18,507 nt of DNA from assembly GCA_032249395.1 (NCBI GenBank), contig JAVVFY010000011.1, positions 1 to 18,507 on the forward strand, written 5' to 3'. Below are positions 1-3,000 of the stretch, one piece after another. Position 1 is the stretch's first letter; every line of letters begins with the position of its first letter. Source of the DNA: Candidatus Aenigmatarchaeota archaeon. Its GTDB lineage: Archaea > Aenigmatarchaeota > Aenigmatarchaeia > CG10238-14 > SpSt-28. The position numbers are program-made.

Positions 1-3000
1 TCCAAACTTTGGAACTGCAAAACGTGGATTATAGGTCATTTACAAGCAGCTATAGAAATTAGAAAAGGAAACTTCAAAAAAATAGAAAAAGTTATCATAA
101 AATCAAGGCCAAAAATAGAAAAAGGAAAATTGCAAGAAATTATAATTTTGCCTGCTTTTAGCGATTTAGCTGGAAACCTACTTTTAAATAAAGAGCTCCC
201 TTCAGATTTCCTTTTTGAGAAAGTTATTGATATAAACAATTCAGAAGTCTATCTTTTGGATGGAAGTTACTTGGGGAAATTAAGTGAGTTAAGCATTTAA
301 CCTTTTCTTTTGAATTTGAGATATGGTAAGAAAGCAATACATCCAAACTCTTCTCAATCTTCAGAAAGACTTTTCAAGAAAATATTATGTGAACCTTTAT
401 GAATCATTTGATCCTAGAAGATGGTTAAGTAGCAAGGAAGTCAAATTAGAACTAATTTGGCCAAAGAATGTTATGGAAGAATACGAAGCTTTTGAAAAAG
501 GTAAGTGTAAGTCTTTAGATTTTGCTTTTTTAATTTATTCAGATGAAGATAAATCGAATAAGCTCGAAAGAAAATATTTTCTTATTATAAAATACTCTCC
601 ATATACTTCTCAACGCTCTTCTTTAATATTTTATCCTAAAGTTTACTCTCATTCTTGTTATTTCTACGAGTTTCAGACAGTCTCTTTAGGAAAAATCTAT
701 CTAACTTGCAAACATGTTTATGCTGCTTTAAGAGAGGTAGATGCTATAGCTAAAAGATTTTCTCTTCCAGTTGAACAATCTTACTTCTATCCAAGAAGCC
801 CGTTTTTGCCAAGAAAGTTCGAAGAAATAGAGAAAAGCAAAGATAAGGCTGAAGTAAAACTTGAGAGGGCGTTCAGATTGTTAGAAGAGGAGCTATACAT
901 AAACGAGTTAGATTCTTTAAGAAGATTAAACAGAAGATTGAGGTATTTGAAAAAAGAATAAAAATCCTTTCGAAACTACCACAGGATCTTGGGTTTATCA
1001 GGTTTCCAGCCGGCTCGGGCGATTGGGAGTGGCGGGCTTACCGCTCGCCCGAAGGCTCGCGGCTTACACCCCCACCCCATCAACGTTATCGTCTATAACA
1101 GCCCTCGTCTCTCTGCCGGGTCTCCCCAACAGAGAGAATGGCCGTCTATTTTTCCGGGTGGTTTCCCCCTTAGATGCCTTCAGGGGTTATCCACTGGGGC
1201 GTGGCTGCCCGGCATGCCAAATGGACAACCGGTACACCAGAGGCCCCGGGAGCGCGTTCCTTTCGTACTTGCGCTCCCTTCCGGTCAGACGGCCAGCACC
1301 CCCAGTAGATAGCGACCGAACTGTCTTTGCCGCTGCATGCGAAGATAGAGTAGAGAGTAGACTATAGATTAAAATTTAGGTAAGTTTACGACCCGAGAAC
1401 GATACCCAATTCATCCTTAGCAAAATGCTACGTCTTTGGGTAGTGCTTCGCATGCAGTCACGACGTTCTGAACCCAGCTAACGTCCCCCTTTAACCAGTG
1501 GACACCTGTACCCATAGCCTTGAGGAGGTAAAATTTACAAAATTTTTCCATTCTTCAAAATTATGAAAAGAATTTTTCCCTTCATTACACAAATTAGCTA
1601 CTACATCTAGGATTTTATTTTTCTCAATCCCAAACCATGTTTTACTTTTCTTGGATATTCTTACTCCATCTAAGAATCTAATTTCCTTGGCAAATTTCAA
1701 TATTTCTTCTTTCTTTGTGAGTACTACTTCATTTTTCCATATCGACGGTCTAAATCCTAGTTTTTCCAGTATTTTCTTTATGAAAATCTTTAATGATTCA
1801 TTTTTAACTGTTACTTGAATTCTTTTGTTAACTATCCATAATTTCTTGGTTTTGTGCCACTTACATCCCAAAATCACTGAGCCTTCGGCGGAAAAGAAAC
1901 TTCGAATGAAACTTATTAGGTTATCAGAGGATATACTTTCTATTGATGGTAGCCTAATATTGTTGTTTTCCTTTCTTTTCCAATCTGGTATAAAGGTCTG
2001 GAGAATTTCTACGACTGTCTTGTTACAAACTCTAATGATTTTAACTTGTTTTCTATCGACTCTTTCTGTAAAATGCAAATCTCCGAATATTATCTTCATA
2101 TTATCCTCACATACTTGTATCAACTTTTCTTCTTTTGCAGCAAATATTACTTCAAAATGTCTATGTTTTTTGTTAATTCTTACGGTACCATCTGCTAATA
2201 GAAGACCAACTATTTCCCAAAACTCCTTCTTATTTTTTACCTCCTCAATTTGGCCGCTTGCAGTTGAGGGCATTCATATCACCCAATTTCTATATATTAA
2301 TTCTACACCAATATATAAACTTTATCTGGTTAAGGTTCAATAAAGAACGCCCTCAATTGCTGCACGGCCAGGAGGGGGGGAGCCGACAGCTACGCACCAA
2401 CGCGCCGGGTCAATTTGCCTGTCGCTATCTGCAAGGAAACGTAGACCCACGCAGATAGCTTTACTGTGGGCTTTCACCGGCCACGGGCCCATTATCCCCG
2501 AGGTAGCTTTTCTGATACCACCGGCCCCCATTAATGGGAACCGATGTATCGCTAACCCACGCTTTCGCGGCTGGAACCCTCGCTTTGTGGGTTCCAGTCA
2601 GCCCACCTTTTGCGTTTGCACTCTACCCCGGATTTCTTTCGGGTGAAAAACTCCCATCAATAGCTACCCCGCTAATCATTCAATCATTCGGGAGCGACCT
2701 TATCATTACGGGAGTTTTTCATGACCCGGGTGAGGTGAGCTTTGGGCCCCCTCGATATCTTTTCGAGGGGGTGCCGCCCCAGCCGAACTGCCCACTTCGC
2801 CAAGAGTTAGCCGATTGACTAACTCTTTCTAGCGCTGTCCCCTCGTCGGGTAAGCTGTAGAGTCCCAGAAGGCTGGTGTTACACTTGCCCCTCGGCCTCG
2901 GCCGAAGCCTACGCCTGATAGCGGGTCCCAGCTACTCTATGCAACCAGGACTCTACAGCAACGCCAGGCTGCAGTAAAGCTCTACGGGGTCTACGTTTCC

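Follow-up and report, generated by a model that had tools for sequence, protein, structure and literature searches.

The peptidyl transferase centre (PTC) of the large ribosomal subunit is regarded as biology's most conserved sequence. The closest systems to the one reported here are the divergent PTCs of Thermoprotei and Methanomethylicia, described in 2024 together with the Pyrobaculum calidifontis ribosome's cryo-EM structure (Nissley et al., bioRxiv 10.1101/2024.11.12.623245); the main text of that preprint shows that archaea can break the rule of PTC conservation. According to the same text, P. calidifontis has G2447A together with C2501A, its A2501 turns syn and pairs with A2450 through the Hoogsteen face, and Pyrobaculum carries cytidines at 2453, 2500 and 2504. 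The text also gives the pairs C2452:Psi2504 and A2453:U2500 for E. coli and a cluster around C2499 for H. marismortui. Here we analysed a stretch of 18,507 nucleotides from a Candidatus Aenigmatarchaeota archaeon (contig JAVVFY010000011.1, referred to as the window), which contains a 23S rRNA gene with a divergent PTC. The following parts of it were read, in E. coli (Ec) numbering.

2488..2499, minus strand: PTC word Ec 2444-2455, GGGGAUAAUGGG, read from 2499 to 2488 and placed by Infernal and E. coli numbering; G2447 at 2496, A2451 at 2492, U2452 at 2491, G2453 at 2490
2383..2398, minus strand: PTC word Ec 2494-2509, GGUGCGUAGCUGUCGG, read from 2398 to 2383 and placed in the same way; U2496 at 2396, G2497 at 2395, G2499 at 2393, A2501 at 2391, C2503 at 2389, with U2504, G2505 and U2506 kept at 2388-2386
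2986..3001, minus strand: strand Ec 2051-2066 of the PTC and tunnel entrance, GGGAAACGUAGACCCC; A2059U at 2993, with G2061, A2062 and C2063 kept
1495..1509, minus strand: A loop (H92), UGUCC replacing UGUUC; U2555C at 1501, G2553 kept
1314..1325, minus strand: A2602 word, Ec 2599-2610, GACAGUUCGGUC; A2602 kept

The numbering was taken from the annotated E. coli 23S rRNA (L057 2816-5719), in which 2444-2455 read GGGGAUAACAGG and 2494-2509 read GGCACCUCGAUGUCGG; a blastn search of E. coli genomes with the 191-nt PTC stretch gave no match, and the whole gene was used. In the Infernal alignment to the Rfam RF02540 consensus, with posterior '*' in both cases, cgGGGAUAACaGag stands against CGGGGAUAAUGGGC in the first word and ACcUCGAUGUCgGcUc against GCGUAGCUGUCGGCUC in the second. 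A second alignment, made with a profile HMM from 26 control archaeal sequences and holding E. coli and the window in the same columns, gave 2059 A>U, 2452 C>U, 2453 A>G, 2499 C>G, 2501 C>A, 2503 A>C and 2555 U>C, with A2451, G2505, U2506, G2553, U2585 and A2602 unchanged. An earlier note on this DNA had placed both words here, with C2452U, A2453G, C2499G, C2501A, A2503C and A2497G; both words are present on the minus strand, and the substitutions hold on the annotated E. coli 23S rRNA, the first five of them also in the profile HMM. C2496U, A2059U and U2555C were found in addition. U2504-G2505-U2506 and the A2602 word are intact in the window, as had also been said, and the whole inner catalytic set is kept: G2447, A2450, A2451, G2505, U2506, U2585, A2602, G2251-2253 of the P loop and G2553 of the A loop.

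The PTC of Aenigmatarchaeota belongs with the divergent archaeal PTCs of the 2024 preprint, as a variant of them. As in the Thermoprotei and Methanomethylicia of the preprint text, the context is archaeal with a short uL3 loop, and changes in the window fall within 2447-2453 and 2500-2504 (C2452U, A2453G, C2501A, A2503C). C2501A is shared with P. calidifontis and would break the C2063-A2450-C2501 triple, with A2450 and C2063 kept in the window; the cluster 2453/2499/2500/2504 varies in Aenigmatarchaeota as in Pyrobaculum, and 12 relatives have both C2500 and C2504. Unlike in Pyrobaculum as described there, G2447 is kept in the window, G2453, U2500 and U2504 stand in place of the three cytidines, and C2452U, C2499G, A2503C and A2059U are added. 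The phylum differs as well, being DPANN rather than classes of Thermoproteota, and diversity within it is far higher than in the systems of that text (20 haplotypes in 49 species). The earlier note regarded divergent PTCs beyond Thermoprotei and Methanomethylicia, changes at 2503 and 2452 and a link to a changed release factor as undescribed; the text of the preprint contains neither DPANN nor any Aenigma- name, neither 2503 nor a release factor, and 2452 occurs in just one figure legend. The A loop of the window (U2555C, UGUCC, hot spring) resembles the U2554C/U2555C loops of Thermoproteota, and some relatives have UGCCC, as in the variation reported there (Nissley et al. 2023, PMC9976906). 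The accessible text of that paper describes such variation mainly in Thermoproteota and contains neither DPANN nor any Aenigm- name.

The 23S rRNA gene is interrupted many times. RF02540 matched the window with 2044.4 bits (gathering score 50) at 2247-5935, model positions 1-2987, and this whole-window match put the 3' end wrongly at 2247. The true 3' part (model positions 2721-2973) lies at window 1298-1017 with 219.1 bits, the A loop and H93 piece was found at 1290-1570, and RNA contigs contain an end-to-end joint 5940 -> 1000. The gene and its introns are as follows; X4 is a DNA run, X15, X16 and X17 are metatranscriptome runs.

about 1000..5940, minus strand: 23S (LSU) rRNA gene, sole copy in the genome, with at least seven introns
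1328..1460, minus strand: 133-nt intron interrupting H93 after Ec 2598 and before 2599, against 1 nt in the model; a single X16 RNA contig, of depth 6704, shows joint 1327->1461; fold with a 12-bp closing stem, z -3.4
1514..2249, minus strand: 736-nt intron, back-joint 2249->1514 in X15, X16 and X17, with a LAGLIDADG-type ORF (listed at 1491-2273, 260 aa; motifs LLLADGTV and FFSAEGSV by eye)
2258..2357, minus strand: intron of about 100 nt in the H90/91 region, after GUGCAGCA, 101 nt where the model has 1; mature ...GUGCAGCAGCGGCCAA joined to GGGU, from loose RNA ends at 2358 and 1513
2414..2464, minus strand: 51-nt intron at the tip of helix 89, between both PTC words, 53 nt where the model has 2; joint 2413->2465 in four RNA contigs of X15, one of X16 and none of X4; flanked by a long stem
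2637..2721, minus strand: 85-nt domain V intron, the model having 4 nt and the window 89; joint 2636->2722 in two contigs of X15 and one of X17 (side 62)
3123..3167, minus strand: 45-nt intron, 47 nt where the model has 2; joint 3122->3168 in X15 and X16
4660..5393, minus strand: 734-nt intron with a second LAGLIDADG-type ORF (4651-5346, 231 aa); skip 4659->5394 in X16 and X17 (side 255), back-joint 5393->4660 in X15 and X16

RNA contigs of the three metatranscriptome runs span the 23S rRNA with word depths of about 1e3 to 1e5 and contain seven intron joints, two intron circles and the end-to-end joint; none of the seven intron joints was seen in X4. The skips are of 133, 51, 85, 45 and 734 nt and the back-joints of 736 and 734 nt. 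The 736-nt intron is excised as a circle, and spliced H89 is of canonical length. In the predicted folds, long stems close the introns. The three insertions that the earlier note had seen near the PTC are introns removed in RNA. Because RNA contigs cover it deeply and at least seven introns are spliced out, the gene is neither a pseudogene nor an assembly error, both of which the earlier note had wished to see excluded. An artefact, whether a pseudogene, a chimeric assembly or odd letters that are intronic or corrected in the mature RNA, might be suspected from the many insertions, the misplaced 3' end of the whole-window match and a second, canonical LSU contig in one sampled bin (G054). On contig-level RNA data it is nevertheless extremely improbable: the genome (752,806 bases, 25 contigs, 89.5% complete; an unassembled second operon is conceivable) has one LSU match, the PTC words of the window are conserved among relatives, and an independent DNA run spans 1887-2758 and agrees except for one letter. 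Moreover, both words are exonic, flank the H89 intron and occur in spliced RNA contigs at depths of thousands (in the spliced X16 contig the 2413/2465 joint is flanked on both sides by 36 letters or more), and no variant letter at 2383-2398 or 2488-2499 appeared among the RNA/DNA comparison rows listed.

We then compared the PTC across the phylum. It could be read in 49 of the 56 LSU-bearing genomes among 81 sampled; in the other seven (G017, G018, G024, G045, G062, G064, G068) contig ends, fragments or undetected exons made the words unreadable, and spurious regular-expression matches to the A2602 word were left out of the counts. Over Ec 2451-55 and 2496-2507 we obtained 20 haplotypes, and no LSU has a fully canonical second word (0/49), as had been stated. 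The changes are also shared across the phylum as had been claimed, with U2452/G2453 in 44/49 LSUs and a letter other than A at 2503 in 44/49. Position by position, 2452 is U in 44 and C in 5; 2453 is G in 44, A in 3 and C in 2; 2499 is G in 23, U in 20, C in 4 and A in 2; 2500 is U in 29 and C in 20; 2501 is C in 46 and A in 3, all three in family f1, to which the window belongs; 2503 is C in 34, U in 10 and A in 5; and 2504 is U in 37 and C in 12. G2454, C2498, G2502, G2505 and U2506 are invariant. On a FastTree tree of the release factor aRF1, which is not a species tree, the minimum number of changes is 10 at 2499, 9 at 2497, 8 at 2503, 7 at 2500 and 6 at 2059.

Several positions vary together. 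The combination 2453:2500 is G-U in 24, G-C in 20, A-U in 3 and C-U in 2 LSUs, so that A-U, G-U or G-C accounts for 47/49, though these counts alone cannot prove a pair, G2453 being in 44/49 rows. The combination 2452:2504 is U-U in 32, U-C in 12 and C-U in 5, pyrimidine-pyrimidine in 49/49. U2499 occurs solely with C2500 (20/20), U2059 solely with C or U at 2503, and the C2500 (20/49) and C2504 (12/49) of relatives always with G2453.

Two control phyla, neither of them DPANN, were extracted in the same way with 30 species each, one of them retrieved by a pattern that requires the GGGGAUAA word. The phylum around G087 has two haplotypes in 30 species, 29 being canonical; the phylum around G086 has seven in 30, with U2452 in 6/30 and U2453/U2499 as the norm. 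A sample around G081, the genome of a record titled 'Nanoarchaeota', had been considered as a DPANN control and was rejected, since it matched at the same contig places as the Aenigmatarchaeota sample drawn around G000 and is thus of the same phylum. In public genomes, TACCNNGGGGATAATGG, an unspecific pattern, gave at least 120 matches, of which 29 are rRNA-like among the matches listed; the titles of these 29 records name Aenigmatarchaeota/Aenigmarchaeota (13), archaeon or uncultured archaeon (14) and Nanoarchaeota (2), and none names Thermoproteota, a listing that does not establish absence of the word from other lineages.

For the E. coli PTC, a map of single mutations (d'Aquino et al. 2020, PMC7049736) reports, in its accessible text, high flexibility at A2503, U2504, A2497, C2496, G2057, A2058 and A2062 and the lowest at C2501, A2450 and C2063. 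The positions that vary most here (2497, 2503, 2504, 2057, 2058, 2062) are alike flexible in vitro. Unlike the map, however, C2501, one of the three least tolerant positions there, is A in the window's family, and the natural variants are multi-site combinations whereas the map holds single changes. The 'five core nucleotides' of the earlier note are thus real as changes but overstated as core: 2452, 2453 and 2499 vary in another archaeal phylum, and A2503 and A2497 tolerate mutation in the E. coli data. C2501A is the sole change of that list at a low-tolerance position, and it is already described in the Pyrobaculum text.

We consider it probable that the window encodes a functional 23S rRNA in which the supporting layer of the PTC has drifted from the universal sequence, and we infer that the cause is lineage-wide fast rRNA evolution. 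The catalytic inner set is unchanged, and under this explanation the second shell, which supports the catalytic nucleotides, would have drifted within modules known to be rearrangeable in archaea; since the inner set is the same, peptide-bond chemistry is predicted to be ordinary in this ribosome. The pyrimidine pair 2452:2504 is U.U in the window. In the cluster 2453/2499/2500/2504, which reads G, G, U, U, G2453 could wobble-pair with U2500, and A2501 may turn syn, both by analogy with other organisms. In the C2063-A2450-C2501 triple the window has the C2501A of P. calidifontis, but the local solution around A2501 may differ because G2447A does not accompany it. At the tunnel entrance C2503 is accompanied by U2059. 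Across the phylum, these modules have switched repeatedly, and their contacts would be retained; relaxed or compensated constraint in small-genome DPANN archaea may account for the fast rRNA evolution, and an archaeal PTC architecture with a short uL3 loop may help to tolerate the changes.

Evidence for a general cause comes from 439 universal LSU columns, in which conservation reaches 90% or more and E. coli and the two control phyla share one base. In 63 of them the universal base is present in at most 80% of the Aenigmatarchaeota rows: 9/43 within the PTC set (21%) and 54/396 outside it (14%). By the same test, 19.3% and 17.9% of columns deviate in Aenigmatarchaeota versus 9.3% and 10.1% in the control phyla, so that the frequency of change at universal columns is about double that of the controls, within the PTC as well as elsewhere. 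Since the increase, roughly twofold, is similar in columns beyond the PTC, lineage-wide fast rRNA evolution is the most likely cause, ahead of an adaptation special to the active site. Relaxation is, if anything, a little greater in the PTC set than in the other columns (21% vs 14%), which pure drift would not predict for the ribosome's most constrained site.

Selection might also be at work. The variable positions are classical antibiotic-resistance sites. Single mutations at such sites confer resistance to anisomycin, sparsomycin, chloramphenicol, pleuromutilin or macrolides in Halobacterium, mitochondria and bacteria. Inhibitors of the PTC or tunnel, from neighbours or hosts, could have acted through 2058/2059, 2062, 2452, 2453, 2499, 2500, 2503 and 2504, which would set sensitivity to natural products; the changes are concentrated at the A-site crevice and tunnel entrance, many of them independent, and the preprint text mentions viable haloarchaea with A2453C, U2500C or U2504C (bioRxiv 10.1101/2024.11.12.623245). 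Yet universal columns far from drug sites change to a similar degree (the 54/396 against 9/43 above). Since we also know of no inhibitor or producer in Aenigmatarchaeota habitats, we regard such selection as unlikely. Heat is a somewhat better candidate for the window's own lineage, though still a doubtful one: C2501A and U2555C would be convergent with hyperthermophilic Thermoprotei and would stabilise the large subunit. The 20 runs that hold all or part of the window as DNA or RNA are hot-spring metagenomes, except one labelled 'organism A'; C2501A, restricted to family f1 (3/49 LSUs), is also a change of P. calidifontis in the preprint text; and C at 2554/2555, reported for Thermoproteota, stabilises the E. 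coli 50S subunit against heat (PMC9976906, accessible text). Among 17 A loops read, 7 are UGUCC or UGCCC, and these belong without exception to families whose release factor lacks the GGQ glutamine. Just two or three events are involved, however, and heat cannot explain the phylum-wide changes, because U2452, G2453 and non-A 2503 also occur in records titled as groundwater or marine.

The earlier note had tied the PTC to aRF1, whose GGQ glutamine it described as lost. The loss is real: among 79 genomes the motif is GGW in 29, GGM in 14, GGA in 1, GGY in 1 and GGQ in 34, so that 45/79 lack the glutamine. The glutamine methyltransferase hemK_rel_arch scores above its cut-off in 31/34 GGQ genomes and in 1/45 non-Q genomes, and the bacterial RF-1 domain (PF00472) was not found in five non-Q genomes. 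Release factors with the GGQ glutamine substituted reportedly retain activity. A summary sentence of PMC9589212 addresses such substitutions, and according to the part of PMC5799190 at hand the methylated glutamine packs against three PTC residues, 2452 among them. It could thus be proposed that the PTC was remodelled along with aRF1, GGM/GGW being compensated by the changed nucleotides or compensating for them. Divergent PTC and non-Q aRF1 do occur in one phylum, the contacted 2452 is U in 44/49, and the loss appears biologically integrated, the methyltransferase being gone with the glutamine and kept or near the cut-off of 87 in the GGQ genomes nested in the GGW family f16 (G079 132.7 bits, G034 79.2 bits). 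But the divergent PTC predates the loss of the glutamine and has a broader distribution. GGQ genomes with a readable PTC mostly carry it (U2452/G2453 in 15/19, non-A 2503 in 17/19), the GGW genome G075 has canonical C2452, A2453 and C2499, and GGQ and GGW genomes of f16 have identical PTC words. In 1,127 aligned columns (Ec about 1766-2890) just the helix pair 1793:1826 separates Q from non-Q genomes, and it follows clade rather than the aRF1 motif; no column in this range tracks the aRF1 state, and the claimed co-adaptation is therefore not supported. Loss of the glutamine maps to about one deep split, and an independent-pairs comparison of Q and non-Q genomes at six PTC states found one supported pair (three on all branches), so no test has power. 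We thus think co-adaptation improbable. A looser connection, though also unlikely, can be proposed for the large clade with W or M at this site: an earlier change of the PTC nucleotides that cradle the glutamine (U2452 and the shell 2453/2499/2500/2503/2504) may have been a permissive step that let W or M replace it and the methyltransferase be discarded. If so, nature would have redesigned the site of peptide release step by step, beginning with the PTC.

The non-Q aRF1 is the first case that we could find in which a class-1 release factor family has lost both the GGQ glutamine and its methyltransferase, and in Aenigmatarchaeota the role of this glutamine, long debated, can be tested directly in nature. 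For the PTC, a whole DPANN phylum is added in which the supporting shell of the active site keeps changing around a fixed catalytic core, with repeated coupled switches, such as 2499/2500 GU to UC, among the 20 variants in 49 species. The viable combinations revealed (C2501A without G2447A, C or U at 2503 with U2059, U2452 with C2504) can help ribosome engineering and the identification of those 'universal' nucleotides that are truly needed.

Introns with LAGLIDADG homing endonuclease ORFs are established in archaeal 23S rRNA, the larger ones being excised as circles. Those of the window are alike in being excised from 23S rRNA, in the circular form of the larger ones, in the LAGLIDADG-type ORFs of two and in their sites within functional centres. 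They differ in their unusual density: RNA supports seven introns or more in this single gene, and domain V around the PTC holds five of these, including those in the H89 tip and H93. A canonical ACAGG within the H89 intron (GCGACAGGC, window about 2419-2427) was considered as the real word, reached by alternative splicing, and was rejected: by the RNA joints it belongs to the 51 nt that are excised, and the leftover helix would be too short. For surveys, such genes carry a warning, in that standard tools set wrong bounds for intron-rich rRNA genes and pipelines requiring gap-free PTC alignments can lose them. In 15 loci of relatives, an intron lies directly after GGGGAUA (Ec about 2450).

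The two words of the peptidyl transferase centre (PTC) in the 23S rRNA gene were read from the sequence as follows.

2499-2488, minus strand: first PTC word, GGGGAUAAUGGG
2398-2383, minus strand: second PTC word, GGUGCGUAGCUGUCGG

In an Infernal alignment, cgGGGAUAACaGag of the window is placed against the archaeal LSU consensus CGGGGAUAAUGGGC, and ACcUCGAUGUCgGcUc against GCGUAGCUGUCGGCUC, both with top posterior probability. We used the annotated E. coli 23S rRNA (L057 2816-5719) as numbering reference, in which positions 2444-2455 are GGGGAUAACAGG and positions 2494-2509 are GGCACCUCGAUGUCGG. 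As a result, the window carries the changes C2452U, A2453G, C2496U, A2497G, C2499G, C2501A and A2503C. This numbering is matched by a second alignment, in which E. coli and the window were placed in the columns of a profile HMM of 26 archaeal control sequences; further changes seen in it are A2059U (window 2993) and, in the A loop, U2555C (window 1501). It also shows A2451, G2505, U2506, G2553, U2585 and A2602 to be unchanged, and G2447, A2450, G2061, C2063 and the GGG of the P loop are likewise kept. The PTC changes listed in the earlier note are therefore borne out, and its list is extended by C2496U, A2059U and U2555C.

The 25-contig genome (89.5% complete) has no LSU match other than this gene. 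The Infernal match to the whole window, 2247-5935, is mis-bounded, leaving out 1.2 kb at the 3' end of the gene; the last 250 nt of the LSU model are found at 1298-1017, with the A loop and H93 at about 1300-1520. All or part of the stretch is present in 20 public runs, 19 of them labelled hot-spring metagenome and 6 recorded as RNA. Positions 1000-5950 were compared at contig level with an independent DNA run (X4) and with three metatranscriptome runs, each from a different study. The DNA run covers 1887-2758 with one differing letter; over the exons, RNA contigs reach summed word depths between about 1e3 and 1e5. At least seven introns interrupt the gene and are spliced out in the metatranscriptome contigs, and the two with LAGLIDADG-type ORFs are seen as circular RNAs.

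1328-1460, minus strand: intron of 133 nt, skipped in RNA contigs
1514-2249, minus strand: intron with LAGLIDADG-type ORF; RNA back-joint 2249 to 1514, an excised circle
2258-2357, minus strand: intron of about 100 nt, loose RNA ends
2414-2464, minus strand: intron of 51 nt in helix 89, skipped in RNA contigs
2637-2721, minus strand: intron of 85 nt in domain V, skipped in RNA contigs
3123-3167, minus strand: intron of 45 nt, skipped in RNA contigs
4660-5393, minus strand: intron of 734 nt with LAGLIDADG-type ORF, skipped in RNA; back-joint 5393 to 4660, a circle

The intron at 2258-2357 follows from loose contig ends, which give a mature RNA of ...GUGCAGCAGCGGCCAA joined to GGGUACAGG. As RNA contigs skip or circularise the insertions around the PTC, these are introns, and helix 89 has its canonical length once the 51-nt intron is spliced out. 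One spliced RNA contig (run X16) extends 36 letters or more to either side of the 51-nt joint and covers both PTC words. Among the rows shown of the RNA/DNA comparison, which has 71 further rows, neither word has a differing letter. A pseudogene, a mis-assembly and an intronic origin of the odd letters are all excluded at contig level by the single LSU copy, the agreement of the DNA run and the spliced RNA over both words; the earlier note had asked for the first two to be checked, and both fall as far as contig-level data reach.

Of 81 genomes sampled from the phylum, an LSU match is present in 56, and the PTC words are readable in 49; the other 7 PTCs are lost to contig ends, fragments or undetected exons.

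Nucleotides at PTC positions in the phylum (n = 49 at each position)
2452: U 44, C 5
2453: G 44, A 3, C 2
2497: U 20, G 15, A 9, C 5
2499: G 23, U 20, C 4, A 2
2500: U 29, C 20
2501: C 46, A 3 (A only in the window's family)
2503: C 34, U 10, A 5
2504: U 37, C 12
2507: C 44, U 5

G2454, C2498, G2502, G2505 and U2506 are invariant in the 49 species. There are 20 PTC haplotypes and none is fully canonical, in line with the earlier note, which had found no canonical second word in the phylum. With the same extraction, the phylum around a Methanoregulaceae MAG (n=30) has 2 haplotypes, with the canonical ACAGA plus UACCUCGAUGUC in 29. The phylum around a Thermoplasmata MAG (n=30) has 7, its norm being U2453/U2499, with U2452 in 6 of 30, C2503 in 2 and C2504 in 3. 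Since positions 2452, 2453 and 2499 vary there, they are not invariant in archaea, and this second control phylum tempers the claim of PTC divergence. Two loci stand apart. A second LSU on a 4.5-kb contig (L010, C42) of a 1.9-Mb, 90-contig bin (G054) has a fully canonical PTC and is probably contamination of the bin. The second PTC word of a public Aenigmatarchaeota record (L242) is ...CGUAGCUUUCGG; the inner-shell G2505 would then be a U, beside A2501 and C2503.

Some of the changes are linked to each other. According to the text of the 2024 preprint on the Pyrobaculum PTC (bioRxiv 10.1101/2024.11.12.623245), Psi2504 pairs with C2452 and A2453 with U2500 in E. coli, and C2499 is contacted by 2453, 2500 and 2504 in H. 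marismortui. In our 49 species, pair 2453:2500 is G-U in 24, G-C in 20, A-U in 3 and C-U in 2, while 2452:2504 is pyrimidine-pyrimidine throughout (U-U 32, U-C 12, C-U 5). The dinucleotide 2499/2500 is fully linked, with G-U in 23, U-C in 20, and G-C and U-U never found; U2499 occurs with C2500 only (20/20), and both the GU and UC states are present within families f2, f8 and f14. U2059 is found only where 2503 is C or U. On a FastTree of the archaeal release factor aRF1, a minimum of 10 changes is needed at 2499, 9 at 2497, 8 at 2503, 7 at 2500, 6 at 2059 and 4 at each of 2452 and 2453. These repeated changes, together with the maintained contacts, indicate that the PTC shell was rewired repeatedly with its contacts kept. 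The same preprint text gives the shorter archaeal uL3 loop as the reason why archaea tolerate changes there, and describes that C2501A in P. calidifontis makes A2501 syn and paired with A2450; the window shares C2501A but lacks the G2447A of P. calidifontis. In E. coli, A2503, U2504, A2497 and C2496 belong to the PTC positions that tolerate mutation best, and C2501, A2450 and C2063 tolerate it least (PMC7049736).

We further compared the PTC with the rest of the LSU over 1,127 aligned columns (E. coli about 1766-2890) in E. coli, both control phyla and 53 rows of the phylum. There are 439 universal columns, meaning columns in which conservation is 90% or higher and the base is the same in E. 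coli and the two control phyla, and in 63 of them the universal base is kept in at most 80% of the phylum rows. The deviating columns comprise 9 of 43 in the PTC, A-loop and P-loop set (2059, 2497, 2500, 2503, 2504, 2552, 2555, 2600 and 2605) versus 54 of 396 elsewhere; the window alone differs at 5/43 and 37/396, respectively. In a symmetric test, 19.3% and 17.9% of universal columns deviate in the phylum versus 9.3% and 10.1% in the control phyla. Because deviation is similar inside and outside the PTC set, the PTC divergence is part of an about doubled rate at conserved LSU sites, and the remarkable point is that the PTC is not spared from it. Outside the PTC, every phylum row compared has A1916C (51/51), and likewise G2557A, G2576U and the sarcin-ricin G2661A (47/47 each). 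The sarcin-ricin loop of the window reads GAAAGG (G2661A at window 1262).

The aRF1 of the window's genome is a single gene outside the window (contig C1, L058 736-2172), in which ...KTVKGGM is followed by a mini-intein (CLHK...VHN) and after it SQGRYDRL. The motif was read in 79 of 81 genomes (loci L060-L138): GGQ in 34, GGW in 29, GGM in 14, and GGA and GGY in 1 each, so that 45 are without glutamine; 13 inteins were counted. Each genome has one strong aRF1 match plus weak Pelota-like matches, and no bacterial RF-1 domain was found in five non-Q genomes examined. The aRF1 tree has one well-supported split between 32 GGQ rows and 47 rows that hold all 45 non-Q sequences and two GGQ nested in family f16. 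The glutamine methyltransferase offers an independent check. Its Mtq2-type model hemK_rel_arch (TIGR00537, cut-off 87 bits) is exceeded in 34/81 genomes, namely 31 of the 34 GGQ genomes, two with unread motif and only 1 of the 45 non-Q genomes, a GGW one at 87.5 bits. The f16 GGQ genomes score 132.7 and 79.2 bits, and no match in their GGW relatives is better than E 1e-6. Absence of the methyltransferase matches the non-Q aRF1, so the glutamine loss claimed by the earlier note (GGM/GGW) is real and integrated. GGQ is summarised in one paper as universally conserved, with its mutation being lethal (PMC9589212).

The earlier note had read the PTC changes as co-adapted with this loss. There are structural grounds for suspecting such a link, since U2506, A2451 and residue 2452 are the residues on which the methylated glutamine packs (PMC5799190), but the distribution of the changes does not support it. 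U2452/G2453 are also present in 15, and non-A at 2503 in 17, of the 19 GGQ genomes with readable PTC, the latter in line with the earlier note's own caveat that 2503 does not strictly track the aRF1 motif. Conversely, the GGW genome G075 has the canonical C2452, A2453 and C2499, and the Q and W genomes of f16 have PTC words in common. None of the aligned 23S columns separates Q from non-Q genomes (frequency difference 0.8) except the helix pair 1793:1826, which follows clade, and with one to three independent contrasts such tests are without power. Thus the divergent PTC shell and the changed aRF1 both stand, and their coupling is not supported. It seems unlikely to us that an earlier change of the PTC was permissive and opened the way for the loss of glutamine.

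The literature searched yielded no prior description of the Aenigmatarchaeota PTC or of GGQ loss. The text of bioRxiv 10.1101/2024.11.12.623245, for which no journal version was found, does not contain DPANN, Aenigma, Nanoarchaeota, 2503 or release factor, though its figures and supplements may list the phylum, and in that text 2452 appears in one figure legend only. Going by their listings, the papers that combine GGQ and DPANN do not treat loss of the motif, and among the papers listed in a broader search only a 2019 review (PMC6514570) has an Aenigma* term, with Aenigmarchaeota confined to its abbreviation list. The window's PTC belongs with the known divergent archaeal PTCs, as a new variant, and the translation-termination machinery of Aenigmatarchaeota merits separate study.

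The RNA contigs also join the 3' end of the 23S to its 5' end (5940 to 1000) with ATC between, in four contigs of one metatranscriptome run (X15) and one of another (X16); this joint is a circular 23S or pre-23S form. Such forms have been described for other archaea. The 85-nt domain V intron at 2637-2721 holds AUGAU and UGAUG-like words. Finally, 15 LSU loci of the phylum (L007, L021, L022, L031, L034, L035, L038, L039, L044, L046, L047, L050, L051, L052 and L054) have an insertion straight after GGGGAUA(A) in the PTC strand, at E. coli position about 2450/2451, with canonical-type sequence restarting as much as about 900 nt further downstream. Introns recur at this one site of the active-site strand itself.
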